Part shown: piece by piece, positions 10,580-52,617 of the stretch | Layout of the letters: each line of letters begins with the position of its first letter | Numbering within the stretch: position 1 is the stretch's first letter | From: Trypanosoma brucei | Taxonomy: Eukaryota | NCBI GenBank assembly: GCA_000002445.1 | Contig: CH464491.1 | Coordinates: 3,328,001 to 3,392,000 of the forward strand | Length of the DNA: 64,000 nucleotides | Direction of reading: 5' to 3' | Notes under the pieces: generated by a model | Told to the model about the DNA's origin: nothing | The model's input: the letters and a program-made list of their open reading frames with translations, nothing else | Databases searched by the model: none | Position numbers and translations under genes: made by a program

Positions 10580-12058
10580 TTACATCCGTGGGGAGGAGCC
10601 CAGAAGAATACGATCCATATTTATTGGTTTAACGAACTTGGGAGTAGGCGAACCCGTTTGAGCAGACGTCCCATTTGGATGGGGTCTGGGCGACCGACCT
10701 CTCAACAACTCAAACCCGGGCTTGCAGTTCGGCGACCTCGTACCTTGAAACTCTGGGGGCGACGATCCCAGCGATAGTTCGGTTGCGCGCCGGCGCAGGT
10801 TTCCAACCCCGTCCCGCAGCCCGGTACCTGTTTTCCTCAAACCTCCCACGCTACGCCCCTTTGAACCACAGTTGGTCAGGCTACCGGAAAGCGCGCTTGA
10901 CGTGTGTCTGCGGTTTCCAGGGGATTTACCCACTCCCAACGTGTTGGTTGCCCTCATTGCGGAAGTCCACGCCGGCCCCGTGGCGAGGGAGTTGTACCGC
11001 TCTCTTTTTGTTGCTGGTCGAGCTGGAGCGCTCCACCCACGGTTCCGAGATGCCACACGCCCTAATGGAGGGGACACTTGTCGGTAGGAGCTCCCGACAC
11101 CACTGGCAGCAGAAACACCGCGATACCCCATGGGGGCAGCGCTCTTCATACGAAGCATGCCAAACCGCTGCTGGACAGACGTCTGGCTACGACCGCCACC
11201 TCTGCGCGCATTCATTTCCGTTTCCATCATCTTTCGCTTTGCCTGATGCGCGGACGCGAGAGCATACAGCCTTTCCCACGGTCCGCTTCCATCTTGGCGC
11301 CGTGAGGCAGCAACACTACGTCTAACAACATTCCCCCGAGAAACTTTGGGTGCAGGGGGGGCGGTCGTGCTTCGTGGCTTGGCTGCGCGGCTCCACAAGC
11401 TGCGCTCGCGGTTCGTTGGCCTCGTTGAAAAGGAGTTTTTTGGTTTGTACAGTGCTGTTGGCATTCTCGGTTGTGACAAGGCTTTGCGCCGTGGGTTCCA
11501 AACAGGCCTACGAGGGGCGCTCTCCTTGAATGGCCCCTTGTTGTTACGATATTCCTCCAACTCCCGCCGAACGCGTTTCCATAAGTCCTCAAGGGACACA
11601 TCCTCCCGATCGTCCACATCTCCCCTTGCATTCTTGTTCAACAATCCCCTCGAAGGGGTGGCTCTATTTCCCACATTTCCGCGCGCCAGCAGCCGGTTAC
11701 GACCAGCTGCACCGCTATTCTTCCCCACGGCTGGCTTGTTACGTTTGACATCATGGGTGCGACTGCGCCCCAACCCACTTGCCATTTCAAAGAGCTCCTG
11801 TAATTTTTCGTGAGACTGTTGCAAAACTGAACTTTGATCCATCCCTCCGGACATGGCGGGTTCGTAGAATGGAGTCGCCGTGGGTAACTTCGCAATACTG
11901 CCGCCGTGAAGGAGGTCATGCCCTTGTTCCAACAATTCCTCCAAGCGCGCCATGGGCCCACCGAGTTCATTGAGGTCCCTTCCCTCAACCCGACCCGCCA
12001 CTTCAAGCGGGCGGCTACTGCCCGTGGACGGAGAAGTATCAAAGGAATCACCACACAT
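10580..12058 (-). CDS. hypothetical basic, low-complexity (R/S/G-rich) protein; paralog A
   Basis: The protein is 492 aa from the verified ATG at 12056-12058; the track start at 12073 is a GTG. The N-terminal ~175 aa are structured and carry motifs shared with the downstream gene at 14074-14526. The C-terminal ~300 aa are Arg/Ser/Gly-rich and predicted disordered. Confidence 0.5.
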   Translation of the reverse strand: MCGDSFDTSPSTGSSRPLEVAGRVEGRDLNELGGPMARLEELLEQGHDLLHGGSIAKLPTATPFYEPAMSGGMDQSSVLQQSHEKLQELFEMASGLGRSRTHDVKRNKPAVGKNSGAAGRNRLLARGNVGNRATPSRGLLNKNARGDVDDREDVSLEDLWKRVRRELEEYRNNKGPFKESAPRRPVWNPRRKALSQPRMPTALYKPKNSFSTRPTNRERSLWSRAAKPRSTTAPPAPKVSRGNVVRRSVAASRRQDGSGPWERLYALASAHQAKRKMMETEMNARRGGGRSQTSVQQRFGMLRMKSAAPMGYRGVSAASGVGSSYRQVSPPLGRVASRNRGWSAPARPATKRERYNSLATGPAWTSAMRATNTLGVGKSPGNRRHTSSALSGSLTNCGSKGRSVGGLRKTGTGLRDGVGNLRRRATELSLGSSPPEFQGTRSPNCKPGFELLRGRSPRPHPNGTSAQTGSPTPKFVKPINMDRILLGSSPRM

Positions 12059-26446: not shown

Positions 26447-27346
26447 AGCTACACAAAACTTATTTTTAAAAAAAAACCTTTTTACAAAAGCAAAAAAAAA
26501 AGGATAAAGACGTGCAGAACACAAAACAAACAAAAAATTATAATATAAAAAGAAGCTTTCAAGAAAAAACAAAAATGAAAACAAAATAAAAAATGAAAAA
26601 GAAAAAATATGTGAACAGAACCCAATAGCCCCCTACAACTCATAACCACCTTAAAATAACGAAACGAAACAGTGGAAAGAAGTGGACATCCCAACCAACG
26701 CGCACAATACATTGCCATCGTGTAACTATCAGCACAAAAAGGGTAGTCGCAATAATTGCAACCGTCCCTCCACTATGGCATTACGAAATGGAAAAACTAA
26801 AACAAGTCAAAGGGAAAAACAATGGGAACCTGACAGGTGCAAAAGTGCAAAATGGTATGCCTCTTACACATTTCCCTTTCACCACCCTCACACATAGAAA
26901 CTGCCATCAAGCATAGCGTGTAAATATTTGTCAGGTGAGGGCACTCTAAGCACTAATATTGAAATCAATTGTCCACCAAAGGTAAAAAGACAAGAAAGGC
27001 ATTTACTAAAGCGGACACATTCTCTCCCATCTATATCTATTTACATAGGTGTATATCTATTTCCGGATTTACCCACGTTCGTACTTCCGTACGCACGCAG
27101 GTTCTCGTGTATGCCTATGTACGATTCTATGTGTTTGCATGCAGGCGTATGGAGGCATACGTGCTGCTGCCCACAAGCTCATTTCCTTGTTATGATATCT
27201 GTTAAAAACAACAGCCAGTACTCCAAGGAGGTGCAGTCGCTGACCTTACCAGAGTAACAGATATCTAACTCAATGAAAGTAAAGGGCATCAGCCCCATAC
27301 TTCACAGTTCCCCTTACATACGGGCACGCACCAACGATAACATCCC

Positions 27347-28150
27347 CTAGAAATCTGCGTCCAGAGAGAAAACCTTTGACGACCTTTCGGAACTCATCAC
27401 ACCAGCCTTCTGATACTCACCAACCTTCTTCTCGAAAAAGTTAGTTTTCCCCTGAAGAGAAATCATATCCATGAAGTCAAATGGGTTCTTCGAGTTGTAA
27501 TGACGGTCGTACCCCAAGGACACCAGGAGCCGATCGGCGACAAACTCAATGTACTGAGTCATCAGCTGAGAATTCATTCCAATTAAGCGGACAGGTAATG
27601 CATCGCAAATGAACTCTCGTTCAATTGATACTGCATTGCATATAATTTCAAGCACACGATCCCTCGGCAGCTTGTTTACGATATACTTCTCGTATAATAG
27701 GCAAGCAAAGTCAGTGTGCAGACCCTCATCACGTGAAATCAGCTCGTGCTGAAGGTGAGCCCGGGCATCAAGCCACGCTTCTTTAGCCAAAAAATGGNNN
27801 NNNNNNNNNNNNNNNNNNNNNNNNNNNNNNNNNNNNNNNNNNNNNNNNNNNNNNNNNNNNNNNNNNNNNNNNNNNNNNNNNNNNNNNNNNNNNNNNNCGC
27901 TTGCCGCGAAGAAAGCCAACACATGTTTGATGAAGTGTCGCTCGCCGTCGTCCAGCTTCTCCCAATCCGTCATGTCATTCCCAAGGTCGATTTCCTCCAC
28001 CGTCCAGATACTGCTCTCCGCCTCCTTGTACTTCTGCCATATGTCAGGGTACTTGATAGGGAAGATAACGTAGCGGTCGGGGTTTTCTGTCAGAAGTGGC
28101 TCCTCCACCTCCCCTTCCTTACGCGAGCGCTTGTGAGATTTGGGTGGCAT
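27347..28150 (-). CDS. RNR2: ribonucleoside-diphosphate reductase small chain (R2), copy 1 (interrupted by assembly gap)
   Basis: The sequence matches the other copies on both sides of the 100-N gap at 27798-27897. The missing segment is longer than 100 bp, so the locus was collapsed or scaffolded here. Intactness cannot be judged. Confidence 0.6.
27798..27897. other. assembly gap (100 N) inside the RNR2 array
   Basis: The run of N is visible in the sequence. Confidence 0.99.
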
Positions 28151-28952
28151 CGTTAGCACTGTCCTTGTTTTTCTTCTCTTGATGTGTTTTCAATATACGA
28201 CAGAGCAGCTAATGGAATGAATGAAGAGAAAGCTTGCACACAAGAGGCATATTGAGTAGTGAAGTAGCGAAACAGTGGAAAGAAGTGGACATCCCAACCA
28301 ACGCGCACAATACATTGCCATCGTGTAACTATCAGCACAAAAAGGGTAGTCGCAATAATTGCAACCGTCCCTCCACTATGGCATTACCAAATGGAAAAAC
28401 TAAAACAAGTCAAAGGGAAAAACAATGGGAACCTGACAGGTACAAAAGTGCAAAATGGTATGCCTCTTACACATTTCCCTTTCACCACCCTCACACATAG
28501 AAACTGTCATCAAGCATAGCGTGTAAATATTTGTCAGGTGAGGGCACTCTAAGCACTAATATTGAAACCAATTGTCCACCAAAGGTAAAAAGACAAGAAG
28601 AAAGGCATCTACTAAAGCGGACACATTCTCTCCCATCTATATCTATTTACATAGGTATATATCTATTTCCGGATTTACCCACGTTCGTACTTCCGTACGC
28701 ACGCAGGTTCTCGTGTATGCCTATGTACGATTCTATGTGTTTGCATGCAGGCGTATGGAGGCATACGTGCTGCTGCCCACAAGCTCATTTCCTTGTTATG
28801 ATATTTGTTAAAAACAACAGCCAGTACTCCAAGGAGGTGCAGTCGCTGACCTTACCAGAGTAACAGATATCTAACTCAATGAAAGTAAAGGGCATCAGCC
28901 CCATACTTTACAGTTCCCCTCACATACGGGCACGCACCAACGATAACATCCC

Positions 28953-29966
28953 CTAGAAATCTGCGTCCAGAGAGAAAACCTTTGACGACCTTTCGGAACT
29001 CATCACACCAGCCTTCTGATACTCACCAACCTTCTTCTCGAAAAAGTTAGTTTTCCCCTGAAGAGAAATCATATCCATGAAGTCAAATGGGTTCTTCGAG
29101 TTGCAATGACGGTCGTACCCCAAGGACACCAGGAGCCGATCGGCGACAAACTCAATGTACTGAGTCATCAGCTGAGAATTCATTCCAATTAAGCGGACAG
29201 GTAATGCATCGCAAATGAACTCTCGCTCAATTGATACTGCATTGCATATAATTTCAAGCACACGATCCCTCGGCAGCTTGTTTACGATATACTTCTCGTA
29301 TAATAGGCAAGCAAAGTCAGTGTGCAGACCCTCATCACGTGAAATCAGCTCGTTGCTGAAGGTGAGCCCGGGCATCAAGCCACGCTTCTTTAACCAAAAA
29401 ATGGCGCAGAACGAGCCAGAGAAAAATATGCCTTCGACAGCCGCAAACGCGACGAGCCGCGTAGGGAACGAAGTCTGACTGCCAATCCATTCAATCGCCC
29501 ATTTGGCCTTTTTCTCAATACACGGAATCGTCCTTATGGCATGTAGCAGTCGTTGCTTTTCGTCGGGATCCACAACATACGTATCGATCAACACGGAGTA
29601 TGTCTCACAATGGATATTTTCCATAGCAATCTGGAACCCATAGAAACATCGAACTTCAGGTACCTGCACTTCGCACATGAACCGTTCCGCAAGGTTCTCC
29701 AGCACAATGCCATCGCTTGCCGCGAAGAAAGCCAACACATGTTTGATGAAGTGTCGCTCGCCGTCGTCCAGCTTCTCCCAATCTGTCATGTCATTCCCAA
29801 GGTCGATTTCCTCCACCGTCCAGATGCTGCTCTCCGCCTCCTTGTACTTCTGCCATATGTCAGGGTACTTGATAGGGAAGATAACGTAGCGGTCGGGGTT
29901 TTCTGTCAGAAGTGGCTCCTCCACCTCCCCTTCCTTACGCGAGCGCTTGTGAGATTTGGGTGGCAT
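28953..29966 (-). CDS. RNR2: ribonucleoside-diphosphate reductase small chain (R2), copy 2
   Basis: The protein is 337 aa from the verified ATG at 29964-29966; the track start is a GTG. It is collinear with mammalian R2 as I remember it: [33 protein letters not shown] (the di-iron ligands Glu/His and the radical Tyr), [64 protein letters not shown], and the C-terminal LDADF. Copy-specific residues are HCETYS and DRHCNS. Confidence 0.9.
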
Positions 29967-30743
29967 CGTTAGCACTGTCCTTGTTTCTCTTCTCTTGATG
30001 TGTTTTCAATATACGACAGAGCAGCTAATGGAATGAATGAAGAGAAAGCTTGCACACAAGAGGCATATTGAGTAGTGAAGTAGCGAAACAGTGGAAAGAA
30101 GTGGACATCCCAACCAACGCGCACAATACATTGCCATCGTGTAACTATCAGCACAAAAAGGGTAGTCGCAATAATTGCAACCGTCCCTCCACTATGGCAT
30201 TACGAAATGGAAAAACTAAAACAAGTCAAAGGGAAAAACAATGGGAACCTGACAGGTGCAAAAGTGCAAAATGGTATGCCTCTTACACATTTCCCTTTCA
30301 CCACCCTCACACATAGAAACTGCCATCAAGCATAGCGTGTAAATATTTGTCAGGTGAGGGCACTCTAAGCACTAATATTGAAATCAATTGTCCACCAAAG
30401 GTAAAAAGAAAAAAATACACCCGATAAACAAGTGTCTTACTCCAGACATTAAAATCATCAAATGATATTAGCTATCTCACATGTAACAAGCGCACAGGTT
30501 CTCGTGTATGCCTATGTACGATTCTATGTGTTTGCATGCAGGCGTATGGAGGCATACGTGCTGCTGCCCACAAGCTCATTTCCTTGTTATGATATCTGTT
30601 AAAAACAACAGCCAGTACTCCAAGGAGGTGCAGTCGCTGACCTTACCAGAGTAACAGATATCTAACTCAATGAAAGTAAAGGGCATCAGCCCCATACTTC
30701 ACAGTTCCCCTTACATACGGGCACGCACCAACGATAACATCCC

Positions 30744-31757
30744 CTAGAAATCTGCGTCCAGAGAGAAAACCTTTGACGACCTTTCGGAACTCATCACACC
30801 AGCCTTCTGATACTCACCAACCTTCTTCTCGAAAAAGTTAGTTTTCCCCTGAAGAGAAATCATATCCATGAAGTCAAATGGGTTCTTCGAGTTGTAATGA
30901 CGGTCGTACCCCAAGGACACCAGGAGCCGATCGGCGACAAACTCAATGTACTGAGTCATCAGCTGAGAATTCATTCCAATTAAGCGGACAGGTAATGCAT
31001 CGCAAATGAACTCTCGCTCAATTGATACTGCATTGCATATAATTTCAAGCACACGATCCCTCGGCAGCTTGTTTACGATATACTTCTCGTATAATAGGCA
31101 AGCAAAGTCAGTGTGCAGACCCTCATCACGTGAAATCAGCTCGTTGCTGAAGGTGAGCCCGGGCATCAAGCCACGCTTCTTTAACCAAAAAATGGCGCAG
31201 AACGAGCCAGAGAAAAATATGCCTTCGACAGCCGCAAACGCGACGAGCCGCGTAGGGAACGAAGTCTGACTGCCAATCCATTCAATCGCCCATTTGGCCT
31301 TTTTCTCAATACACGGAATCGTCCTTATGGCATGTAGCAGTCGTTGCTTTTCGTCGGGATCCACAACATACGTATCGATCAACACGGAGTATGTCTCAGA
31401 ATGGATATTTTCCATAGCAATCTGGAACCCATAGAAACATCGAACTTCAGGTACCTGCACTTCGCACATGAACCGTTCCGCAAGGTTCTCCAGCACAATG
31501 CCATCGCTTGCCGCGAAGAAAGCCAACACATGTTTGATGAAGTGTCGCTCGCCGTCGTCCAGCTTCTCCCAATCTGTCATGTCATTCCCAAGGTCGATTT
31601 CCTCCACCGTCCAGATGCTGCTCTCCGCCTCCTTGTACTTCTGCCATATGTCAGGGTACTTGATAGGGAAGATAACGTAGCGGTCGGGGTTTTCTGTCAG
31701 AAGTGGCTCCTCCACCTCCCCTTCCTTACGCGAGCGCTTGTGAGATTTGGGTGGCAT
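30744..31757 (-). CDS. RNR2: ribonucleoside-diphosphate reductase small chain (R2), copy 3
   Basis: Same as copy 2, with the consensus residues HSETYS and DRHYNS. Confidence 0.9.
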
Positions 31758-32559
31758 CGTTAGCACTGTCCTTGTTTTTCTTCTCTTGATGTGTTTTCAA
31801 TATACGACAGAGCAGCTAATGGAATGAATGAAGAGAAAGCTTGCACACAAGAGGCATATTGAGTAGTGAAGTAGCGAAACAGTGGAAAGAAGTGGACATC
31901 CCAACCAACGCGCACAATACATTGCCATCGTGTAACTATCAGCACAAAAAGGGTAGTCGCAATAATTGCAACCGTCCCTCCACTATGGCATTACCAAATG
32001 GAAAAACTAAAACAAGTCAAAGGGAAAAACAATGGGAACCTGACAGGTACAAAAGTGCAAAATGGTATGCCTCTTACACATTTCCCTTTCACCACCCTCA
32101 CACATAGAAACTGTCATCAAGCATAGCGTGTAAATATTTGTCAGGTGAGGGCACTCTAAGCACTAATATTGAAACCAATTGTCCACCAAAGGTAGAAAGA
32201 CAAGAAGAAAGGCATCTACTAAAGCGGACACATTCTCTCCCATCTATATCTATTTACATAGGTGTATATCTATTTCCGGATTTACCCACGTTCGTACTTC
32301 CGTACGCACGCAGGTTCTCGTGTATGCCTATGTACGATTCTATGTGTTTGCATGCAGGCGTATGGAGGCATACGTGCTGCTGCCCACAAGCTCATTTCCT
32401 TGTTATGATATTTGTTAAAAACAACAGCCAGTACTCCAAGGAGGTGCAGTCGCTGACCTTACCAGAGTAACAGATATCTAACTCAATGAAAGTAAAGGGC
32501 ATCAGCCCCATACTTTACAGTTCCCCTCACATACGGGCACGCACCAACGATAACATCCC

Positions 32560-33573
32560 CTAGAAATCTGCGTCCAGAGAGAAAACCTTTGACGACCTTT
32601 CGGAACTCATCACACCAGCCTTCTGATACTCACCAACCTTCTTCTCGAAAAAGTTAGTTTTCCCCTGAAGAGAAATCATATCCATGAAGTCAAATGGGTT
32701 CTTCGAGTTGTAATGACGGTCGTACCCCAAGGACACCAGGAGCCGATCGGCGACAAACTCAATGTACTGAGTCATCAGCTGAGAATTCATTCCAATTAAG
32801 CGGACAGGTAATGCATCGCAAATGAACTCTCGCTCAATTAATACTGCATTGCATATAATTTCAAGCACACGATCCCTCGGCAGCTTGTTTACGATATACT
32901 TCTCGTATAATAGGCAAGCAAAGTCAGTGTGCAGACCCTCATCACGTGAAATCAGCTCGTTGCTGAAGGTGAGCCCGGGCATCAAGCCACGCTTCTTTAA
33001 CCAAAAAATGGCGCAGAACGAGCCAGAGAAAAATATGCCTTCGACAGCCGCAAACGCGACGAGCCGCGTAGGGAACGAAGTCTGACTGCCAATCCATTCA
33101 ATCGCCCATTTGGCCTTTTTCTCAATACACGGAATCGTCCTTATGGCATGTAGCAGTCGTTGCTTTTCGTCGGGATCCACAACATACGTATCGATCAACA
33201 CGGAGTATGTCTCAGAATGGATATTTTCCATAGCAATCTGGAACCCATAGAAACATCGAACTTCAGGTACCTGCACTTCGCACATGAACCGTTCCGCAAG
33301 GTTCTCCAGCACAATGCCATCGCTTGCCGCGAAGAAAGCCAACACATGTTTGATGAAGTGTCGCTCGCCGTCGTCCAGCTTCTCCCAATCTGTCATGTCA
33401 TTCCCAAGGTCGATTTCCTCCACCGTCCAGATGCTGCTCTCCGCCTCCTTGTACTTCTGCCATATGTCAGGGTACTTGATAGGGAAGATAACGTAGCGGT
33501 CGGGGTTTTCTGTCAGAAGTGGCTCCTCCACCTCCCCTTCCTTACGCGAGCGCTTGTGAGATTTGGGTGGCAT
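32560..33573 (-). CDS. RNR2: ribonucleoside-diphosphate reductase small chain (R2), copy 4
   Basis: Same as copy 3 except for NAVLIEREF (Ser to Leu). Confidence 0.9.
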
Positions 33574-34372
33574 CGTTAGCACTGTCCTTGTTTCTCTTCT
33601 CTTGATGTGTTTTCAATATACGACAGAGCAGCTAATGGAATGAATGAAGAGAAAGCTTGCACACAAGAGGCATATTGAGTAGTGAAGTAGCGAAACAGTG
33701 GAAAGAAGTGGACATCCCAACCAACGCGCACAATACATTGCCATCGTGTAACTATCAGCACAAAAAGGGTAGTCGCAATAATTGCAACCGTCCCTCCACT
33801 ATGGCATTACGAAATGGAAAAACTAAAACAAGTCAAAGGGAAAAACAATGGGAACCTGACAGGTGCAAAAGTGCAAAATGGTATGCCTCTTACACATTTC
33901 CCTTTCACCACCCTCACACATAGAAACTGCCATCAAGCATAGCGTGTAAATATTTGTCAGGTGAGGGCACTCTAAGCACTAATATTGAAATCAATTGTCC
34001 ACCAAAGGTAAAAAGACAAGAAAGGCATTTACTAAAGCGGACACATTCTCTCCCATCTATATCTATTTACATAGGTGTATATCTATTTCCGGATTTACCC
34101 ACGTTCGTACTTCCGTACGCACGCAGGTTCTCGTGTATGCCTATGTACGATTCTATGTGTTTGCATGCAGGCGTATGGAGGCATACGTGCTGCTGCCCAC
34201 AAGCTCATTTCCTTGTTATGATATCTGTTAAAAACAACAGCCAGTACTCCAAGGAGGTGCAGTCGCTGACCTTACCAGAGTAACAGATATCTAACTCAAT
34301 GAAAGTAAAGGGCATCAGCCCCATACTTCACAGTTCCCCTTACATACGGGCACGCACCAACGATAACATCCC

Positions 34373-35386
34373 CTAGAAATCTGCGTCCAGAGAGAAAACC
34401 TTTGACGACCTTTCGGAACTCATCACACCAGCCTTCTGATACTCACCAACCTTCTTCTCGAAAAAGTTAGTTTTCCCCTGAAGAGAAATCATATCCATGA
34501 AGTCAAATGGGTTCTTCGAGTTGTAATGACGGTCGTACCCCAAGGACACCAGGAGCCGATCGGCGACAAACTCAATGTACTGAGTCATCAGCTGAGAATT
34601 CATTCCAATTAAGCGGACAGGTAATGCATCGCAAATGAACTCTCGCTCAATTGATACTGCATTGCATATAATTTCAAGCACACGATCCCTCGGCAGCTTG
34701 TTTACGATATACTTCTCGTATAATAGGCAAGCAAAGTCAGTGTGCAGACCCTCATCACGTGAAATCAGCTCGTTGCTGAAGGTGAGCCCGGGCATCAAGC
34801 CACGCTTCTTTAACCAAAAAATGGCGCAGAACGAGCCAGAGAAAAATATGCCTTCGACAGCCGCAAACGCGACGAGCCGCGTAGGGAACGAAGTCTGACT
34901 GCCAATCCATTCAATCGCCCATTTGGCCTTTTTCTCAATACACGGAATCGTCCTTATGGCATGTAGCAGTCGTTGCTTTTCGTCGGGATCCACAACATAC
35001 GTATCGATCAACACGGAGTATGTCTCAGAATGGATATTTTCCATAGCAATCTGGAACCCATAGAAACATCGAACTTCAGGTACCTGCACTTCGCACATGA
35101 ACCGTTGCACAAAGTTCTCCAGCACAATGCCATCCCTTGCCGCGAAGAAAGCCAACACATGTTTGATGAAGTGTCGCTCGCCGTCGTCCAGCTTCTCCCA
35201 ATCTGTCATGTCATTCCCAAGATAAATGTTTTCCATCGCCCAGAAGTTGGAACGTGCCTTCTTGTACTTCTGCCATATGTCAGGGTACTTGATAGGGAAG
35301 ATAACGTAGCGGTCGGGGTTTTCTGTCAGAAGTGGCTCCTCCACCTCCCCTTCCTTACGCGAGCGCTTGTGAGATTTGGGTGGCAT
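34373..35386 (-). CDS. RNR2: ribonucleoside-diphosphate reductase small chain (R2), copy 5 (upstream edge copy, divergent N-terminal region)
   Basis: The ORF is full length. Within the first ~110 codons it carries clustered differences ([16 protein letters not shown] versus [16 protein letters not shown], and [16 protein letters not shown] versus [16 protein letters not shown]). The rest is identical to the other copies. Confidence 0.8.
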
Positions 35387-35978
35387 CGTTAGCACTGTCC
35401 TTGTTTCTCTTCTCTTGATGTGTTTTCAATATACGACAGAGCAGCTAATGGAATGAATGAAGAGAAAGCTTGCACACAAGAGGCATATTGCTTTCTAAGT
35501 GCTGTTATCACATTTGACAATCCTGTCTAAAAAACATTACTGTTTCTGTTTTTTGCTTCTTTAAAGTTAATTGTTCGTAGAGGTTCTAGGTAAGGTCGAT
35601 AGTTGCTCTTGGGGAAAGCGCGTTGGCAACAGCAACGAAAAAAAAAACTCATGTTGTCCACTTTACCGAGTGGAAAGGTCGCAACAGATCCATGCAACAA
35701 ACTGTAGCATTAACTCACATTAGTGGAGAGCCGCAGCGCTTCATGCACTGGGGAGAAGGCAAACTAGTGTAGCTGCCCCAACATCTACTGAATATGTATT
35801 ACTGTTTGCTTTACCACTGTGAAGTCTGACCATCTTCCAGCAGATATCAGTAGACCGTAATGCCATGAAGACATCGACTAGCACACGTTTCGTTGGAACC
35901 TCATCAGCGCGACACTCATGGAGGAGGAACAAGCCAACTCGCGCAAACTCAAAGAATAGGGACCTGTGAAGAGTTGGC

Positions 35979-36005
35979 ACCACACACACACACACACACA
36001 CACAC
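35979..36005. repeat. (CA)n microsatellite
   Basis: Visible in the sequence. Confidence 0.95.
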
Positions 36006-36323: not shown

Positions 36324-38660
36324 TCACCCAATTGAACTCTTACGATGCTCTTGTAGTGCGGATACCAGTGAAACGTATTGTTGCTCTGCAACCTCCTTAC
36401 TCATCCCTTTAACCCTGCACCATGCATCCCACTTAGCGCGTCCAACCACATCGGTTAACCACGGTCTCGAAATATTGATATCGCCAACGGTAGCCTGCTT
36501 GTACAAGGCATAAATGTTCAGTTTCATGTCGTTGCTTACCATACCTACGATTCTGGCAAAGGCTTGTTGCGCCGCCGCAAATGCCGTTTCTGGGTTTTGC
36601 ACGGCAGCTCTATTACCCGTTGTGTTAAAATCGGAGGTGCTTTTCTCACCAACGTCGGTAGTGGTAAAAACTTCGTGGCGCTGACGATGAAGTATGGAGT
36701 GCAGTGTGGGACACGGTGAACAGCCACCCATTAGCCGATATACCATATCCCTCGAAAATCCCAGTGGCGTGCCATCCTCACAATCCTTTAAACCATCAAA
36801 GATATCACAGCACATAACAAGCCAATCCGCCAATGCTCGTTCAGCTTCATCACGAGCTCTGGCATCAACAGACACTTGTTGCGTGGCCCATAGCTTTTCT
36901 GCACCAAGCAGCACTGACTCAACTAACCCAAAGTACAACATCTCCGCTCTTGAGCTAAACTTCTTCAGCGGAGTAGACGGTGTGGCCATCAACCATAACA
37001 CACTGAAGCGCTCTGCTTCACTGGCTGGTGGTGAAGCTACGTACCGCCGGAGCGCCGCTTGCTCACCCGACGCGCTTGCTAGCAAAACCCTCAGCTTCTC
37101 ACACATCATTAGTAGCAGCGGGCCATTTTGGGGGAATGAAGCTGCCACAGCCCCCGCTACCAACGCCGCCACAAATGTCACAGGCATGTCACCCACAGTT
37201 TGAGTTTCATCAATGGCCTCCACAAGAGGTAAAAATTTTTGAACCGTACACTCAAGCGAGACTAACTGCAACAAGAGGAAAAGGTGCACGCTGTGGAGTG
37301 ACGCTGCGGTCGGAACGGTGGCAGGTACGTCACCGTGCCGTAACGCAGGGCTGTAGCCGCCCACGATATCGGGACCATGCTGCTCGAGCTTCAACAATGT
37401 TGAGCGGCGAAAATCTACCCAAAGAAGGATGAAAGCAAGCTTTTGGGGATCTTGCACTGGGCAGGAAAGGTAAAAATGCGGCTGTAACGGTAATTGGCAC
37501 TGGCGCATACGTTTTTCGCTAGCCTCGACGCAACCGCAACCACCGCCTCTGGTGTCATCTGGCTGCTCGCCTGTGCCAGCAGTAGTCAATCTGCCGTTGT
37601 CACCTACTGAAAGGGGGGTTTCACCACAAAAAACAGGTAGTAGCAACCCATCGAAAACCTCCAAAACGTCAAACAGTGTAGCTATATTGCCGTTGCATAC
37701 ATCATACATGACAGTTGAATCCACCAAAATGCTGGAGAGGGGTTGAGTATCGTTACGTCGTGCAGCATTGCTTAACCTAGCAATGCGCTCGGTGAAACAG
37801 CCCTCGGGTAGGGAGACCAGCTCAGCGTTATCGCTGCCTTTAGAGCCACCTCGCGCTCTACCTCTACGGCAGCCACAGTGGCGGTCACCACGATGACGAG
37901 TCCCCTCCCACACGAGACGCAGAAGTAGCGGGCGTAAGGCTTCCGACACACAGGACAGTCTGAACGGCCATTTCACTCCCTTGCATTCAGAACTCAAGCC
38001 CAACGCACCAACATTTTCTCCATTGCTTGTGTTGCAGCTGTCGTTATTCCCTCCGTCACGAAGTGGTGATCTCTCTGAGTTAGCTCCAAAAACAACAAAA
38101 GCACCAGCAAACTCGCGCCTGATCTGGCATCTTGCGTCGCGGTCACCCAAGTTTAGTTGGCCCTGCGACTTTTCGACGCCCCCAGCCATGGTAACTCCCA
38201 AAGCATCGCTGCCACACGAAGGAGCAACCGGCAGCGATGAAATACGGCCAGATTGCTCCTCAACGTCATGGTATTCACAAGGTGTGCCGATAGCGCTTCC
38301 ACACGAAACGCTGTCAAGTACAACCCCTCCATATGTTCGGTGAAATGTCACAATTGCTTCAACCACCTCTTGCCGCAGCAAAACAATGGCGAGGTGGAGT
38401 GGAAACCATTCGTCGATTCCGACCTCGTCTTGATTCTCCAAGTCCACAGGCTCGGTGTCAGGATCGTCCATAAGACTAACGTATACTAAAAGAGGGTTGT
38501 ACACACGGCATGCGGCTTCATAAATGCATCCCTTGAGACTCACCTCGCGCAAACGCTGAAGCAAATCATCAAGAAACTCCGCAGGATCAGCGGGCACGCC
38601 GTCAGTTACTTCAAGAAGAAATGTTACTGGTTCCCCCAAATGCTCCGCTTTGCTCCACAT
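36324..38660 (-). CDS. 778-aa protein with C-terminal acyl-CoA-binding (ACBP) domain
   Basis: The ATG at 38658-38660 was verified. The C-terminal ~85 aa (about 36324-36600) match ACBP: YKQATVGDIN is identical to bovine ACBP, along with AKWDAW and KG.SKE.A...Y. The upstream ~690 aa are unrecognised. Confidence 0.7.
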   Translation of the reverse strand: MWSKAEHLGEPVTFLLEVTDGVPADPAEFLDDLLQRLREVSLKGCIYEAACRVYNPLLVYVSLMDDPDTEPVDLENQDEVGIDEWFPLHLAIVLLRQEVVEAIVTFHRTYGGVVLDSVSCGSAIGTPCEYHDVEEQSGRISSLPVAPSCGSDALGVTMAGGVEKSQGQLNLGDRDARCQIRREFAGAFVVFGANSERSPLRDGGNNDSCNTSNGENVGALGLSSECKGVKWPFRLSCVSEALRPLLLRLVWEGTRHRGDRHCGCRRGRARGGSKGSDNAELVSLPEGCFTERIARLSNAARRNDTQPLSSILVDSTVMYDVCNGNIATLFDVLEVFDGLLLPVFCGETPLSVGDNGRLTTAGTGEQPDDTRGGGCGCVEASEKRMRQCQLPLQPHFYLSCPVQDPQKLAFILLWVDFRRSTLLKLEQHGPDIVGGYSPALRHGDVPATVPTAASLHSVHLFLLLQLVSLECTVQKFLPLVEAIDETQTVGDMPVTFVAALVAGAVAASFPQNGPLLLMMCEKLRVLLASASGEQAALRRYVASPPASEAERFSVLWLMATPSTPLKKFSSRAEMLYFGLVESVLLGAEKLWATQQVSVDARARDEAERALADWLVMCCDIFDGLKDCEDGTPLGFSRDMVYRLMGGCSPCPTLHSILHRQRHEVFTTTDVGEKSTSDFNTTGNRAAVQNPETAFAAAQQAFARIVGMVSNDMKLNIYALYKQATVGDINISRPWLTDVVGRAKWDAWCRVKGMSKEVAEQQYVSLVSALQEHRKSSIG

Positions 38661-39599: not shown

Positions 39600-42500
39600 C
39601 TATCTGACGACTTGCCCAGATCCGAACGCAGCTATGCGAGAAAACCAATCATGTAGACCCGGATTAAACGATGACATCCCATGTCCGTCATTGCTGGTCA
39701 CTGCCATCAAAAACCGTACGACATCCACGGTAACCGCGCAACGCGGCATCAGCATTTGAACATTCCGCTCCATCAACGCATCGTCAACGACGGCACGTGG
39801 TATTATCGATGCAACAATCATCTGAATAAAATCAGCAACAAGTTTTGATTTAGCCTCGTCTACAGGCGATACCTCATCGGATTCGTCACACCCATCGTCC
39901 GCACCCTTCTCTTTGTAACCCGGAGCGGTGCCGGACGCAACCTTGTCAGTCGCACCGGCACCAACAATGGCGGCTCGTCCACCCCAAGGGTTTCCGTGGT
40001 TCCCACTGGCACCAACAGCTCCACTGTTGTTGCCGAACGGAGTAGCGTTAAGATTCGAAGCTCCGCTGAGGAGCCCTTCAACAGTCATCGGCGCGCGCAT
40101 TGCTTTCCTTCCCGTGGTAGGTGGTGCTAGCTTCGTGAATAGCACTGACAAAACTTCATTTAGCTGCTGTGTAAGGGCGGCACCGGCGGCAATGTCCTCT
40201 TCATCCACGGCACCTTCCACGCCCGGGGGCGCTTTGGCCAAGGGCAGCGACGGTGCCGGACTTTGCATAAGGAGCAACGTGTGAGCTGCTTGGGCTTGCA
40301 GTTGCCTCATCTCCGCAACGGGGCAGTCAAACACCACACACTGCGTACTATTCCACATGTTGAAAATGGAACCGGCGTCCACCCAACGTGGCCCTTCACC
40401 GGTTGAAGCAGCAAGCGAGTGCGTCATACCTTTATTCGTCGCACGTGCAGTCTTCTTAGTTGGGTGGTAGGGTTTCTCGGCAACCGAAGGGGGCTGCGTT
40501 GCGGCTGGATCGTTGGCAGGGGAGACGACGAGCACAAACTTGAGAGTTGACACCGGTTCAGCCTGTTTGCAAGCTGCACCGCCACCATTGGCACCTTGCC
40601 CACAGCGGGGCGAGGCGGCGCGAATACTCATGTTTTCGTTGTAAGCAACAGGATCAGCGCTCGCCGACTCGTACTGGAAAGTATTGCAAATGACAGTGTT
40701 GGCGCGTGGCACGTGGAGCTGCTGGAGCGTTTGGGGAGACAATAACGAGGGAAGCGCATCTATTATGACAGGTGGCAAAAACCCAGCAGGCGACGCGTTG
40801 TCATCCCCTATTACTGTAGCCGTAGATGCACCAGTACGTTGCGTCCTGAAAGCACCACCGGGACGGGTGGCAGAAGAAGCCTGCTGCTTCAGAATTGACT
40901 CCAACGCCCCTTCGCTGTGCCACAGGTAACTGCAGCTCAGAGGGGCGGTTCTGGTCTGGAGAAACGAGCGGACATGTTGCAGGGCGAGCTCAAGATCTAG
41001 TGACTCCTGTGGTGGGAGCAAGCAGTCTAGTGAACGCTCTCGATGAAGAGCGGCAAACGCAGAAACGACCGCAGGGAGTGACACATTGTTTCTCTGAGCT
41101 GCTCGCTCTCGGTCATCACGCGTCCGCGGATGACTGGGCCCACTCGGAGGTAAAGAACCTCCCCCTCCAGCAGCGTTATCCCACCCTGGACCTTCTTTCT
41201 CCATAACATTCCCCACATTGCGCTGTTGATAATGAATGTAGGCAGTGACACTCTCAGCAAATACAACGTCAGTCCCCAGCGAAATAGCGTCATCTCCGTA
41301 CAGCGAAAACACACTTGTACCGCTGAAGACATGAAATTTCATGTCGGCGACAAGTTTGGCAAGCACTGCACAGTTGGCAGCAACAATGCAAAACGCTCGG
41401 CCCGCATGTGAAAACAAGGCTGAGAGCAATAGCAGCGCAACACGTAGTATATTATAGTCGTGGATACCAACCGATACCACCTGCTTTACGACAGACATGA
41501 GCAATCGAACGGGATTCTGTCGATACGGTTCGAGTGAAGCAATCATCTCCTCTTCGCTCGACATTTCGTGAGCCATCACAGTGACCGGCGCCCCACCCAT
41601 TGTTTCCCCTCCCTTTCGCTGCTGCTGCAAGGGGTTCTCTTCTTGCCTTGCTGTGATAAGCGAGGGGTTCCGCAGGCAGAGAAGGCGGGCCAACATAAAG
41701 TGACTTTCAATGAGTGCAGTGGGATGTGCTGCTGTGTCGTAACGCGATGCGACGGATAAAATGACGTCCTGCAGCAGATGTTCCGCTTGGTCAAGTAAAC
41801 CCACTCGAATGTGCTCCTCAGCCAGGGTATTCACTGCCCTATGGACATAAACAGCATCCGTACTCCACGGCAAGGGGGCAAGCTGTTTCCATAAAACTTC
41901 GCGCCGGTTTTCTCTCTTCGTTACTTCCCTACTATCATCTTGCTTCCTCTCGTTGAAGCAAAAGGTAAGAGGAAGCAAACTATGTACCTGGCTGTACTCC
42001 TGCAGATTCAGTACAGCACCCTCCAGAAGGTCGATGGACGAGGTGGAACCCTTCTGGCTCTCTTTACATTGCTTTTCTCGCCTCAGGGCTTCAAGAGCCA
42101 GTATGGTCCAAGGGTGAAACAAATCCATGCGGCTGTCGCACACCAATGATCGAGAAACATCCAGCAATCCATTGAGAGTTTCCTCGGCATCACTTGCTGT
42201 CCCTGTGCGCATTGATATTGTGGCGCGGTACAAGGAAAAGACGCGTGCGCTGTATGAATCGCCGCACTGCTCGCATAGAGCGAGTGCGTGATCAACTACT
42301 TTCTGCGCTACCGAGTACTCCAGAAGGCGCACATGGTTCTGAGTCATGAGCTCATACACCTCGCACCAGAAATTGTGTGTACCCACTGTCCACAGGAAGG
42401 ATGGCACATGAGGTATATTGCAGACAAACGACCCGCCATTCTCAAAAGATCTCACGAGACCCTTCAACAACCCAAGTGCTTTCATAGACTCCCCACGTAC

Positions 42501-45500
42501 GGTATATATCCTCGATAGTAAACGCTCAGATGTGCATCGAGTGTAAGTGTCTTCTACTTCACGCCAACGTTTTGCGTTTCCACCGTCCGGTAAACGCGAA
42601 GAAGGCGGGGCGGAGTCACGCGGCACACTCTTCCTACCACGCAAGACAAATGCATTGCCGTCCCCGACAGTACTCGTTGAGTTGCCCGATTGCCGCGGGT
42701 GCTGCTGTCGCTCGCCCTGCCGCTGCTGCTGCACCTTCTGTAGTCGGGCTAGGATGACCTGAAGAATCTGCTCCGCAGCATTTAGAGCCTCACGACAAGC
42801 GCTGTTATTGTACGTGAGATTCATCGGGCGCTGACTCCCACGGGAACGCATCGCACGGCGGTCAGCCCCTGTTGTCGTGCCGGACGCTGGGGGCTGCGAT
42901 TGACCACCGAGGCTTCCCCAAACGTAAGCAGCTTCCTTTCCCCCAAGGACAACAAGGCACTCCGCCAGAGTGAGCTCTACACGTTGTGACAGCCGTTTTC
43001 CGTAGTACGCCGCAACCGGTTCTGGAAGACCAGAGGCCCCCGACATCAGTGAAGAAACGGTTTGCCCCACGGACGCTCCTGCTGCATCCGCTGCTGGGCG
43101 ATCATCAGACCCTGGGGAAGTAAAGCACTGCGTAATGAAAACCTGAATGCACGCCACGTTTCCAGGGCTCGTGGGGAGTTCGGTATCGTTGTATAAACCA
43201 GATTGAGATGACTCCTCCTGATGCTGCTGCTGCTGGAGTGCTTGATTATTCGGTGCTTCAGCAGCCGGCTCCGCCTGCCGGCGAGACTGCGCGCCGGTAT
43301 CTGCGCCCTTTAAACCTTTAGTAGTTTTTAACGCCTCACTCCCAGAAGCGCACAGATCAAAACTCTCCAGTGCCACACACGGCACGCGCTTACCCTGACA
43401 CACATCGCGCAGTATGCCCATAGAGGCCCGGAAGTTACCACTGTATGCAGCTGCCTTTGCCTGCAGTAGTCGAATTTCCACCGTTAGCGGCACATGACGC
43501 GTGTAGGTTCGTGCTAGGTATTCCGCCAAGCAGGCAACCATAGCAGAATACACTGGAAATTTAAATTGTAATAGCTCCCACCCCAAAAATAGCAGATGAT
43601 GTATGATTTGCGGCATCAGTGTAGTTAATGGTTCACGAAGATGTGGCAAAACTATGATGTCCTCCAGTGCGAACCCACAAAAGTCACGCAAACATTGCGG
43701 CAGACCACTGCCTGAGGACTGCTCGAAGAGGCGCTCAAGAACACGGGCAGAAAGCAAGCACGCATCCACGGCACGTTTCTGTTGCTCCCGGTAAGTGTAC
43801 ATGGCGAGAGAAGTTAGTGAGAGAATGGCCAAAAGAATGCGAGGACACCCCACAGAGGCTGCTTGGAATTCGGACCACGTATCAACCGCAGTTGAGTTAC
43901 GTAAGCTCTCGGGCACACCAAGTGCCGCATCCACTGAATCTAACCAACACCTTTCCGCCTCATCGCGCTGACGATGCAGTATGTAAATACGACCCAGTTC
44001 ATAAAGCTCCTCTGCAAGGGGTCCAAACAGGCGGCGTTGACGGAGGTACGATATAAGATTATCGTACGACCCGGTGACGTCGTGCAGTGATGTGGGTCGT
44101 GACGCGCCGTTGGTGTCGTCAGCATTAGGAGGATTCGTACCACATACCACACTGTCATCCGCTCGTACCGTGGCGCGGGGGCGCGAAGTCTCCACAAGAA
44201 CATCTGACACAAGCGAACATTCATCAGCAGAGAAGTTGAAAGATGCGTTCGGCATGGACAAAACGGACATTTTGCTGTCACCCTGGGTACCCCATGAGGG
44301 CAGCAGCGTCCGACCCAGACGCTGCATAGCACGTGAATAGGCTTCTGTTTTGGTATACCTCCTCCATGTCCAACGCGCATTTCTGGATAGCGACTTTTGC
44401 CTCGACTCGTCCCGGTACACCTCTAAGAGTTTGTCCACAGTTTCCTTTGCAATAGGTTCCCCAATCATACACTGCACGTTCAGTACAAAAGGTAACAAAT
44501 GCCTCGAAAAGGAACCGCTTGTTAACTTCTGAACTTCCTCCGCAATTTGCAGGGACGCCAGTTGACAACTGAACTGTGCACATTTCAACAGAAACACCAG
44601 TTTGTCAATGGCTGTGCCCATAGGTATTGTGTAACCAAGACGCTTCGCGGCAAGCTCCATACCATTGGGGTCTTCGAAAGAAATTGGCTTCGTGATACAC
44701 CTCACGGTGCCAGCTTCCTCAGTCTTCTTCCTCCGCTTCTTCGACACTCTCGCCTCCCATTGCTGCCGCTGGACCACGGCCGTATCGTACGCGCACTTCC
44801 TTTCCTCAGCTTCTTGCTCAAGTAGGCTGCAGTCAACTTCCAACTCACGAAGGAAGTAACCCACATCCGGTATTACATCCACCCACATCTCCATCAACGA
44901 ACTCAACTGCAATGAGGACTGCCATTGAATCCTCGTACGCTCAAAACTCTCCCTCGCACATACCTCGTGTGTCTGATAAAGCAGCGAATGGCCCCTCTTC
45001 CGCTGTTCCACGTCACGAGCATGCTCAAGGTAAGCCTCTTCATATTGACCTGCGGGAGAGAAAAGGGAAAAAAGGGAGGGAACGCGTCCCTGAAATGGTA
45101 GCTGCTCATCCAGCAGCACATCGCGTCTGACTTTAACGGCATTCGGTTGTACGATCCCCAGGTCACGGCGATAGTCTACATACCCTTCCCATAGCAGAAG
45201 CAACGTTCTCTGCATCGTTTGTGCAAGGGGGCATATGTACGGTCCAAGGGCAACCAGCTTTTCGCGGGAACGAGGACCCGTGCGCATAACGGAAGCTCGT
45301 TGCTCCGTAGCTGAAAGTGTCCCCACAAATCGGTACAGGCGCGGATCAATGAAGCCGTCCGCGGCATCGCTAGAGTATGTCCCACCGCACGAAGGTGAAC
45401 CCCGGCCACCGGCGTCCTCAGCGAGTGTCTGCTGCGCGTCGTTCAGTGGCTGCACGTCTGCGGGATCGTCGCATACAAACGTGCGAATCCCGTCGACCGC

Positions 45501-48500
45501 AAGTAGAACCACCTGGAACGCTTGAGCTGGTAAACCGCAACGGTTGAACAACCTAGCAGACCGCATAGCGTGCGACAAAAACCTCTCTTCCTCATCTCCT
45601 TCATCCAATGCTGTCCCTTGCACGGCACGCTTACCCTTTGGCATGTCCTCAGTCAAAGCTGACACGGACTCGTCAACACCTCCCTTCACTTTGCTCGCGC
45701 GGCGGGAAACCTTCCCAGACGTATCTAATGTGGCTTTCTCTTGGAGCACCTGGCATTGCTCCAACTGCAGTAGTGACATCTTCTCCAGGAAAAAATACAG
45801 CTTCGCTGTGAAAGGAACGCAAAACTGCATGATACGGGCCCTCAGCCACCGTGCAATCTGTCGTCTCCACACCCAGGCAAACCCACGGGTGAGTTGTCGC
45901 AATGTTTCCTTCTCAACAGGTGACCATTCTCCCTCCGCTGTATTACTAACAATATGTTGTCCCAGTTCATTTATAGGCGCAACCTGAGCCCTCGCATCCT
46001 CGGCCGCCAACTCTTTTGCACTCTCCAGTGCGGTCGGGTTATCAGTCGTCGATGCATCGACTGAGGAAGTACCCTTCAACTGTATGTGCAAGTACCCTTC
46101 TCGGCGGAGCCAGCTCCTCATGCTTTCAATCAATCCATTCTGGTGCTCGTTAATAAGGGTGCGGATATCCTTAAGGCGCTTTAATGTATCCAGTGCCAGC
46201 CGTCGCGCATTCACGACATCACCTTGCTCCATCAGGCTCTCTACGACATATGCAGCTGTCCGCGCGTACATGGGATGATCGCACACCTGATGGAGCCGTT
46301 CGATGGCTAGCTGCGCTGATCGACTGTGCACTGCTCGGACCACCTCCAACAACCATGGCGGAATACCTTCTAATACCACGCAGTTGGGCGTCGCAGCCAA
46401 CACCGAGTCGAGTGCTTTGTCGCATGAAGAGAAGACTTTTCTCAAGGAGCCGGCAACCTGAGCAGGCACTTTGAAAAGAATCTCCCCCAGGAGCTCCACA
46501 TATTCGATGGGTACGCAGTCGTCGACGATGTCGTCTAACATTACGTACGAGCTTCCGGGAAATGTCGAAACACCGGCAGCGCACTCAGCAGGGGCGCCGG
46601 TTGTCTGGGATGGTGCCGCAGAGCCCACCCTGGAGCCGCGGCGAAGGCGAGATGAAGTCCCGCGCGAGGCGTTTTCGCCTCGGTTGCCTGGAGCTGGTGT
46701 CCCCTGCGTACCTTCGGGAGCGCTTCCCTTTGAATTCACGACGCGCTGCACTCTGCGCGCACTGCAGCGAATTCGGTGTCTGTGACGGCGCTGCCGCAAG
46801 TTAGGAGCGTTGTATACATCGTTCCATACACGCTCAAATGCCTGAAGAAGAAGCTCATACCACCCAGCGATGGTCGAAGGAAGGTCAGATAAATCCTCAG
46901 AACAGCGCTCGGGCGACACTACCGGGGCCCCTGCAGGGGTTGTTGCTCCCGCCTGTTGCCCCACAATTTGGTCCTTGCTGTTAGTATCAGCATGCAAATT
47001 GGCGCAAGGGGCAGAACAGGGCATAGAAGCCATCCTTCGTATCGTAAGGAGTAATGCACCAAGAACGCGAACCGCCAACAACTGCACGTCCGGATCATCA
47101 GACGTGGAGGTGGGATGTAACAACAGGATCTTACACAATGTGCCGAGCGGCCGCAGCACAACAGGACAGTAATTGTCGTCCACAAGTGTTGGAAGGAGGG
47201 CGTTGAACAACTCGAAGGCACAGCGCATCATACGTCCATAATCTTTAACGCGGAACGCAAGCTCCATGACAAACCGAATTCGGTATGCGCAGCGCATATA
47301 TACAACTTGAGTCTCCTGCAACTTATAACGTTTTGGGAAAGGCACCTCGACCAACATGCTGTGCTCAGTAAAAGGCATGAGCCCTGTGGTACAAAAGTTT
47401 TTGTAAGCGTGGCCTTTCATATCGCCCACAGACATCCAAAGAATAGCCGAAACAAGCGCTCGCAGTTGCAATGGTGATGACGCAGACAAGATTTCCTCGC
47501 TCGGTTGGAACTCTAGGGGGCTTATGATGGTGTTACCATCCCCAGTTGGTGAGGGAGAGCGACGCGAACCCTCCGCGGTGACGGTAGCTGCTTCCCTAGT
47601 AATTGTACCGACGCTCCGTGACGCCGCTGAGTCTCGGAGACATGGCGCATTGCTCTTATCACACAAAAAAGCTGCGTGCAGTACATCCCTTGACTTCTCC
47701 ATCCACTCCGTAAATCCTAGCTTCCCACATATGGTCACGGCGTAGCACCAAATCATGAGAGGAGAGTACGCACTCCCCTCGCGCGGGGCCAGTTTGTCAA
47801 CCCCAAAACTCCCATTTGATCCACTCCACTCGGGACGACACAGCAGATGAAAAGCCTCTTCTAGCATTTCCCGCTGTACCTTCCGCCGGGGTTGATGGGA
47901 TGCCAAACACAACAAGACAAGCGCTAGTAGTAATGCGTCCGAACTCTCCCGCGCCCACGCAACAAGCCGTTTCCTCTCTCGCTCATTGGTATCCAAAAAC
48001 TGTGGTTCCTCCTGGATAAGTGACTTTAGAATATTCTTCTCCTTCAGCGTAACGGCGCCATAAATATTAGCCTTCGCCTGGCGCTCCTTAATTCGTGTGA
48101 CGTCCTCTCTGTGCCTTTCAATAGCTGCAAAAGATTGTTGATACAAACTAGCACACCAACACAGTTCGATTCGACAACGCATTAAATCAGTCCTTATATC
48201 ACGCACCTCCTGCTCACCACTAGCCACCAACGCAGACACATGCGACCCTAAACCTAATCTAGCACCAGTATCAACCCCTGCAACCTGTGCGGAGTTATGC
48301 ATATCCAACAGATGCGTCGCACTGGAAAGCCACCTCAACGCAATATTAATGGCAGAAATCCCTAGCATGGCGTGGTGATGCTTTTTGCGAAATACGCAGG
48401 CGGAGTCCACACCCTTTGGGAGCCCATCTACCGATCCACCAACCTCCCCTCCTTGATGCGATGTCGGTGATGCCGATCCCGCAGCTGCCTCCCCTGAAAC

Positions 48501-51491: not shown

Positions 51492-52617
51492 TGTATAACT
51501 CCTTCGCACTACTTCTGCCTGTTGTTGCCGTGCCCGCCGGCCGTTGTTGCTCTCTGATTTTCTCCTTCAGTGTCTTTCTTTTACACCACTTCCTTTGAAA
51601 CAGAGGGATATATGAGAGTGATTCGAAGGAAAAAAACAGAGGTAAGACAAATGTCATTGAAAGTTAGTGAAGGTTAAAGGAGTGAAAACAAAAAAACTAT
51701 TGATTCTAACCGCCTGGCGTCGAGGAACCAGCACGTAATGGCTAGCAGTCGTTACAAAAAAAAAAAGAAAGACAAAAAACACCTGTGGGAGTTAGTTTGT
51801 GTTGGGTCCTCCACATGTCCAACCGGTCATCAATCGGCTTTATTTTAACGGCGGGTTCAAGGGTAACAAAAAGGGAGGCAAGTGGGAGGTTTACCTCAAC
51901 TAGCCAAGTTTCTGCGGTTTACTGCTGCTGCCATGTAAAGTTGTGTCGTTCCGGAGGTCCGTTACCTTTGTTGACCGCTGACGCTCTAATATTACATTAC
52001 TGTTACGGCAACTAACGGTCACTCACATGCAACACGCGGCAATAAGGCACGACGCCAACCGAGGAAAACAGAGACACACACATATTCATTTGTCATCTTA
52101 CCCATTTATAATACCCGCCTCGGTGCCTGCTGTCCCAAGTATAAACACACGAGAGGGGCACACAGGAAGATGCTCCGTGGGCGGGCGGTGATGGTAATTT
52201 AAAAAAAAAAAGTAACAACAACAATAATAATATGGACTGAAGGTGAATAACAACAACTGTAGAAAGTTAAAATATATACACATATGTGCATATAATGGTG
52301 CAGACAGATAAAATAATGACGATAAATGCGGTATGGGGAAACGATAAGAAGACCAAAAAGGAAGAACACCCATGCCAATTAACCATATAAAAATTTTTCC
52401 CCAAACACCCTCCCCTTATGTCCCTTTACCACCCCTCCTCGTCGCTTTTTGTTTTTTTTGCCATGCGTCTTGTCGCTGTTAGCCCCCACACAAACACACA
52501 CGCCAGCTCCTTCACCCTCTTTCGCGTTTCGCCTCCCTTGACTATTACCCTTCTACCTCATTTTCTGTGAAACACATCCTACCTTAGCTCCACAAGTTTC
52601 AGCTATTCCTTACCTAC

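Follow-up and report, generated by a model that had tools for sequence, protein, structure and literature searches.

How does one copy of an otherwise homogeneous tandem gene array come to carry short, dense blocks of substitutions at residues that its protein family conserves, and what kind of protein would such a copy make? The question is raised by the RNR2 array in the 64-kb stretch of DNA analysed here (the window), which exact protein look-ups place on chromosome 11 of Trypanosoma brucei brucei TREU927. The window contains five tandem RNR2 copies, all on the minus strand (c0 to c4; Table 1), and the four full-length products are exact protein matches to EAN80228-EAN80231. In each copy the true ATG lies 9 nt inside the ORF (at 35386 in c4). 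Since every large ORF from approximately 10.5 kb to the upper end of the window (64 kb) is on the minus strand, c4, which has the highest coordinates, is transcribed first. The homology shared by the array units stops 95 nt upstream of the in-frame GTG of c4, at approximately 35490, and an ACBP-domain gene comes next upstream; c4 is therefore the edge copy, as originally predicted.

Downstream of c0 lies a UBR-type gene, and the order ACBP gene, RNR2, UBR-type gene is also kept in other trypanosomes. The extent of RNR2 amplification at this site differs between species: a 5.8-kb unit comprising ACBP and RNR2 is repeated in T. vivax, and RNR2 is present twice in T. melophagium and once in T. 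grayi. The arrays thus arose independently at a syntenic site. At the downstream end of the TREU927 array, the assembly gap and the 1-nt deletion in c0 make the true copy number and sequence uncertain. The 741A of c0 is also present in all DAL972 copies.

Table 1. Features of the RNR2 array and its surroundings (positions are those of the window unless another locus is named)
Feature	Position	Strand	Description
c4, upstream-most (promoter-proximal) RNR2	34373-35386 (34373-35395 from in-frame GTG)	minus	337-aa variant R2; EAN80231.1 / XP_829343.1 / UniProt Q382Q0
Patch 1 of c4	35222-35260	minus	17 substitutions in 39 nt; CDS 127-165 counted from ATG
Patch 2 of c4	35107-35135	minus	4 substitutions: 35135, 35113, 35109, 35107 (CDS 252, 274, 278, 280)
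5' segment common to all copies (as placed at c4)	35396-35490	minus	polypyrimidine tract then AG; likely trans-splice acceptor
c3 RNR2	32560-33573 (32560-33582 from GTG)	minus	canonical in patch region; carries S245L
c2 RNR2	30744-31757 (30744-31766 from GTG)	minus	canonical; same protein in DAL972 and T. equiperdum OVI
Spacer island (second sharply bounded island, non-coding)	30415-30494	minus	in spacer downstream of c2; ~85 nt replaces ~105 nt
Spacer-island counterparts in other assemblies	L001:11263-11350; L005:1594-1821		
c1 RNR2	28953-29966 (28953-29975 from GTG)	minus	S120C and Y288C at conserved positions; probably Tb927.11.12790
c0 RNR2, downstream-most	27347-28150 (27347-28159 from GTG)	minus	100-N assembly gap at 27798-27897; 1-nt deletion near 27748
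(CA)12.5 microsatellite	35981-36005		unique region between ACBP gene and first RNR2 copy
ACBP-domain gene	36324-38660		next upstream of c4
3969-aa ORF	39600-51509	minus	DAL972 counterpart annotated with a CFAP54 N-terminal domain

Compared with c2, c4 has 21 substitutions and no indels (993 of 1014 positions identical), in keeping with the original prediction that the upstream-most copy matches the others over some 900 bp. Seventeen of these changes make up patch 1, where divergence from the canonical sequence reaches 44% (17/39 nt; an example of a k-mer from this patch is GCACGTTCCAACTTCTGGGCGATGGAAAAC); they fall inside the interval 35215-35265 for which more than 15 substitutions had been predicted. 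The remaining four form patch 2. A second cluster had indeed been proposed, at 35095-35125, and its four substitutions are real, but 35135 falls outside that range. Among the remaining full copies, c3 departs from c2 at only one position and c1 at two, so that 17 changes in 39 nt are not attributable to chance. Half of the c4 changes are G>A or C>T. The patches lie 230-390 nt from the unique flank, patch 1 being approximately 230 nt from the array homology boundary, and both the 95 nt upstream of c4 and its 3' spacer are of the ordinary array type.

At the protein level, patch 1 introduces E43K, E45R, S47N, I48F, T50A, V51M, E53N and D55Y; codons A44, S46 (AGC>TCC), E52 and I54 are changed synonymously, and W49 is unchanged. 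Patch 2 introduces S84R, L92F, A93V and E94Q. The c4 protein thus differs by 12 amino acids in total, and the affected motifs now read AARDG, and ENFVQRF in place of ENLAERF. The original prediction placed these changes (ENIYL and NFVQRF) at R2-conserved positions, and six of the replaced residues are indeed near-invariant among R2s (E45R, T50A, E53N, D55Y, S84R and L92F). The reading frame of 337 codons is intact, with neither a stop nor an indel, and so lacks the disruption expected of a pseudogene.

Comparison with related strains, which the original prediction had recommended, shows that the patch is a polymorphic mosaic, present in full in TREU927, discontinuously in DAL972 and not at all in T. 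b. equiperdum IVM-t1. The DAL972 sequence is an independent capillary whole-genome shotgun (PMC2854126), the contigs of which were only ordered against strain 927, and the partial presence of the patch there argues that it is not an assembly artefact. The upstream-most RNR2 copy of DAL972 is collinear with c4 through the unique flank. It has exactly the c4 state at seven of the 17 patch 1 sites (CDS 127, 156, 157, 159, 162, 163 and 165), giving E43K, E53N, D55Y and two synonymous changes; it is canonical at CDS 132-151 and across patch 2, and at 534 and 741 it bears SNPs specific to gambiense. Of the patch states, the second DAL972 copy shows only 165T, and E43K occurs alone in CAA71741.1, an independently cloned T. 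b. brucei R2. None of the patch states was found in the upstream-most copy of IVM-t1, an assembly with indel errors in which such an absence could be due to consensus polishing of a collapsed array. Ten of the 17 patch 1 changes and all of patch 2, or 14 of the 21 changes, were seen only in TREU927. Judged by inspection, the variant sites occur in incompatible combinations between copies and subspecies, a pattern of exchange that draws on seven full-length copies from two assemblies together with the indel-affected copies of IVM-t1.

The S245L substitution of c3 (window position 32840) recurs in two IVM-t1 copies (L002:8015-9028 and 9825-10837), so that single-copy variants of this array are common to several Trypanozoon lineages.

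The spacers between the copies contain a second sharply bounded island, downstream of c2 (Table 1), for which no donor was found within the window. The patch-bearing copy is immediately followed by this island in DAL972, but in TREU927 the pair lies two units apart. Both types of spacer occur in T. equiperdum OVI, on a scaffold that joins them by 10 Ns. The five inter-copy spacers of the window (26555-34372) alternate between two SNP haplotypes that differ by approximately nine SNPs per 790 nt, one following c4, c2 and c0 and the other following c3 and c1, which suggests a two-unit higher-order repeat. Since the spacer island is linked to the patch in DAL972 and unlinked from it in TREU927, and the patch in DAL972 is discontinuous, we take the islands to be old polymorphisms of the array that are being reshuffled and erased by short-tract conversion or unequal exchange.

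What kind of sequence was the source of the patches? On the evidence of its codons, the tract looks like R2-homologous coding sequence rather than noise. In patch 1, four of the 12 changed codons are synonymous, including the Ser codon switched from AGC to TCC (p ~0.02-0.03 against random substitutions): when 17 substitutions with the observed transition/transversion mix were placed at random 50,000 times, at least four synonymous codons arose in 2.9% of trials and a multi-base synonymous codon change in 1.4%. We also determined residue frequencies at the 12 changed positions in 239 other R2 sequences. Five of the variant residues are common elsewhere (K43 in 147 of the 239, F48 in 184, M51 in 19, V93 in 49 and Q94 in 43), N47 was found once, and R45, A50, N53, Y55, R84 and F92 were never found. 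Accordingly, five of the six variation-tolerant positions received a residue that is common in other R2s, where 2.1 would be expected (p ~0.013). One of these, Q94, is present in every other Trypanosoma species examined, so that the canonical E94 is the derived state. Estimates of dN and dS, which cover just 13-24 codons, were 0.54 and 1.7 for patch 1, and 0.36 and 0.41 (a ratio of ~0.9) for the two patches together. We rejected derivation of the tract from an outgroup, because over its 39 nt patch 1 has 16-17 mismatches to T. vivax, T. grayi and T. melophagium, compared with only 3-7 for the canonical sequence.

Overall, we favour a model, to which we would give an even chance of being right, in which the patches are the remnant of a diverged R2 unit, broken up by short-tract gene conversion and tolerated through the redundancy of the array. 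Most simply, the diverged R2-homologous tract would be what is left of an old unit of this array that has been overwritten almost completely by its canonical neighbours, through gene conversion or unequal exchange. Short, sharply bordered islands would be all that survived: in TREU927 the two coding patches of c4 and the spacer island after c2, in gambiense part of patch 1, linked to the spacer island, and in IVM-t1 none. Survival in c4 may reflect its position, approximately 230 nt from the homology boundary, where exchange would be least efficient. Additionally, the dense mismatches would resist heteroduplex formation, which may explain the sharp borders. Finally, c4 would be co-transcribed and trans-spliced like its neighbours, and a variant subunit could be tolerated given at least three to four canonical copies.

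This model fits better than a copy that is drifting away. The original prediction had offered, as one option, an edge copy escaping homogenisation and decaying, and that idea agrees poorly with a sequence that is 100% homogenised outside the patches, has an intact frame and shows non-random types of substitution. A point against the diverged-unit model is that no diverged second unit occurs at the syntenic positions in T. vivax, T. grayi and T. melophagium. Its main weakness is one of timing, since survival for long enough to diverge by 44% is hard to square with such ready erasure by conversion within the very recent Trypanozoon radiation. This leaves room for a recent ectopic introduction, a one-off mutational event or a selected variant subunit; the coding-likeness tests disfavour the second of these, and polymorphism and absence in other species disfavour the third.

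The best of the alternatives, although in our view an unlikely one, is ectopic gene conversion, that is, recent copying from a diverged R2 paralogue or pseudogene at another site in the T. brucei genome, such as a subtelomere. Conversion from a diverged paralogue was the other option of the original prediction, and its premise stands insofar as the mosaic pattern is typical of conversion; the donor, however, did not appear in scans of the window or of prokaryotic, viral and metagenome collections. A recent arrival would explain why so easily erased a tract is so strongly diverged, the signatures of homologous coding sequence in the patch would be accounted for, and ectopic conversion into T. 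brucei arrays is on record (PMC1855330). Against this, searches of both strands of the 64-kb window (k-mers of 9-12 nt and BLAST) found no donor outside the array beyond chance, the best match to the patch being a 13-mer at 8602 (E = 0.06) that does not extend. Nor did the only T. brucei-group R2 cluster that we recovered from the protein collection contain a diverged paralogue; its eight members are near-identical. A donor of approximately 56% identity would, moreover, offer little homology for tracts of 39 and 29 nt with perfectly identical flanks. When the variant N-terminus (130 aa) was used as a protein query, the only returns were unrelated R2 fragments with identities no higher than 71%, none of them patch-bearing, which is weak evidence as the search seems to favour targets of similar length. 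Two other sources were rejected: a micro-inversion of a canonical segment was excluded by the search of both strands of the window, and a foreign origin was set aside because a degenerate coding pattern for ten residues had zero matches in the metagenome, prokaryotic genome and viral collections.

We consider it unlikely, and slightly more so than ectopic copying, that the patches record a mutational burst, in which the product of a single repair event, untemplated or mis-templated, was later trimmed by conversion in other lineages; the event might be error-prone synthesis, template switching or the joining of ends with filler DNA. The very sharp borders of the patches would be expected from such an event, the island after c2 alters the length of the spacer and so resembles a complex indel, and the proportion of G>A or C>T changes (half of the total) also fits. 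A burst would not, however, readily preserve length and frame exactly and avoid stop codons, retain a Ser through a two-base codon switch or enrich for residues that are legal in the family. Furthermore, no template of at least 14 nt, direct or inverted, was found in the window, the 13-mer at 8602 being the sole match of its length.

To what extent could the c4 product function as an R2? It is clearly a member of the family, scoring 366.0 bits against PF00268 (class Ia RNR small subunit; cut-off 33.6) compared with 374.2 bits for the canonical protein, which itself matches the mouse, human and yeast R2 structures at E<1e-130. Alignment to E. coli NrdB equates W49, E53 and D85 of the T. brucei protein with W48, E52 and the Fe ligand D84, and its ENIHSETY motif with E115, H118 and Y122. 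On this mapping c4 keeps the ligands of the N-terminal half, the radical Tyr and the radical-exit Trp (D85, E116, H119, Y123 and W49). Conservation at the radical-transfer interface is nevertheless broken, as W49 is kept and E53, the equivalent of E. coli E52, is lost: position 53 is Asn in c4, Glu in 237 of the 239 other R2s and Asn in none of them. At the α/β interface of the E. coli enzyme, E52 takes part in the water network of the proton-coupled electron-transfer pathway, and when E52Q and F3Y122 are combined in β2 the radical cannot be fired into the second active site (PMC11482829). In patch 2, S84R adjoins the Fe-ligand Asp85. From Asn53, the Arg beside the ligand Asp and three further never-seen residues at near-invariant sites, we infer impaired radical transfer, and the c4 product is probably a poor or inactive radical-transfer subunit, although its PF00268 score is lower by just 8 bits.

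Two known systems invite comparison. The engineered E52Q of E. coli β2, which traps the α2β2 complex, is likewise a change from carboxylate to amide, which in c4 occurs in a natural copy; it is, however, a single Gln substitution in a bacterial protein, whereas c4 has Asn and 11 other changes in a eukaryotic R2. The inactive R2 paralogues (yeast Rnr4/Y4 and the apicomplexan R2_e2 clade; PMC3824934) are similar in being a second R2-type polypeptide beside an active R2, with invariant residues substituted. Unlike c4, in which just 12 residues differ, the rest being canonical, and which is polymorphic within one species, Rnr4/Y4 and R2_e2 are separate, long-diverged and conserved genes that lack the metal ligands. 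An Rnr4-like inactive paralogue is therefore a poor match for c4, which keeps the mapped ligands D85, E116 and H119 and has no counterpart of its variant sequence in IVM-t1 or in other trypanosomatids.

Expression of c4 as a variant isoform is plausible from its sequence. Its splice-acceptor region (Table 1) and 3' spacer match those of the other copies, and c4 should thus be processed like them. Might the variant then be a selected isoform, an altered or inactive β' that pairs with canonical β and modulates RNR? The intact ORF and shared processing signals would allow this, the changes cluster at the radical-exit Trp and the α/β interface residue, the residues acquired at variable sites are non-random, and the E53N/D55Y part of the patch is kept in two subspecies. 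Nevertheless, we would be surprised if it were so: the patch is polymorphic, partly erased in DAL972, absent from IVM-t1 and from all other trypanosomatids examined, and the dN/dS over both patches is near 0.9. Other copies, too, carry odd substitutions at conserved sites. Indeed, the two changes in c1 lower the PF00268 score by 10 bits, more than the 8 bits lost through the 12 changes of c4, and their location at conserved sites suggests that purifying selection on single copies of this redundant array is weak. The S120C of c1 lies inside the ENIHSETY iron-ligand/radical motif, at a position occupied by Ser in 235 of 239 R2s, and at the position of Y288C 108 of 119 sequences have Tyr. The c1-specific TGC codon is included in a qPCR primer published for Tb927.11.12790. 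We regard as still harder to credit the more specific proposal that a β' with Asn at the Glu52 equivalent and a remodelled radical-exit loop would pair with canonical β or bind R1 tightly, tuning the activity of an RNR that in this parasite lacks dATP feedback inhibition, and that selection would keep the patch against homogenisation.

An artefact in the TREU927 consensus, for instance from a low-quality read in a collapsed repeat, would suit an array in which c0 is broken by 100 Ns and probably carries a 1-nt error, on a chromosome shotgun-assembled from two haplotypes, and with 14 of the 21 changes in TREU927 only, but it is the least probable account of all. It is very unlikely for the part shared with DAL972, where seven identical derived states sit in the same copy. 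It is also unlikely for the changes seen in TREU927 only, which are flanked by validated sites, include no indels and keep the frame. The changes are codon-aware, and their distance of 230-390 nt from unique flank means that single capillary reads could have anchored the patch.

Returning to the model of a diverged unit eroded by conversion, sequence mosaics are documented in other T. brucei tandem arrays, in which near-identical polycistronic copies carry motifs in different combinations in T. b. brucei and T. b. gambiense, with recombinant copies specific to a subspecies (PMC1855330; PMC2854126). We regard the RNR2 mosaic as a fresh example of this mosaicism between tandem copies. It differs from the documented cases in that the RNR2 tract is far more diverged (44% over 39 nt) than any copy in the array. 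The RNR2 array appears in Jackson 2007 only as a table row ('x1', Dn 0.0126 > Ds 0.0101; PMC1855330), values in line with relaxed constraint on single copies, and is absent from the recombination table of Jackson et al. 2010 (PMC2854126); a literature search by accession number gave no match.

For users of TREU927 RNR2 gene models, primers and proteomic databases, these results mean that Q382Q0 is not a typical R2. The locus also provides a small, clean illustration that conversion tracts in trypanosome tandem arrays can be very short and discontinuous, and it shows that, where an essential enzyme is encoded by a dosage array, single copies can bear changes at near-invariant residues of the catalytic pathway. 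The finding would be of greater importance only if the variant were expressed and influenced RNR, for instance by serving as a dominant-negative or regulatory subunit.
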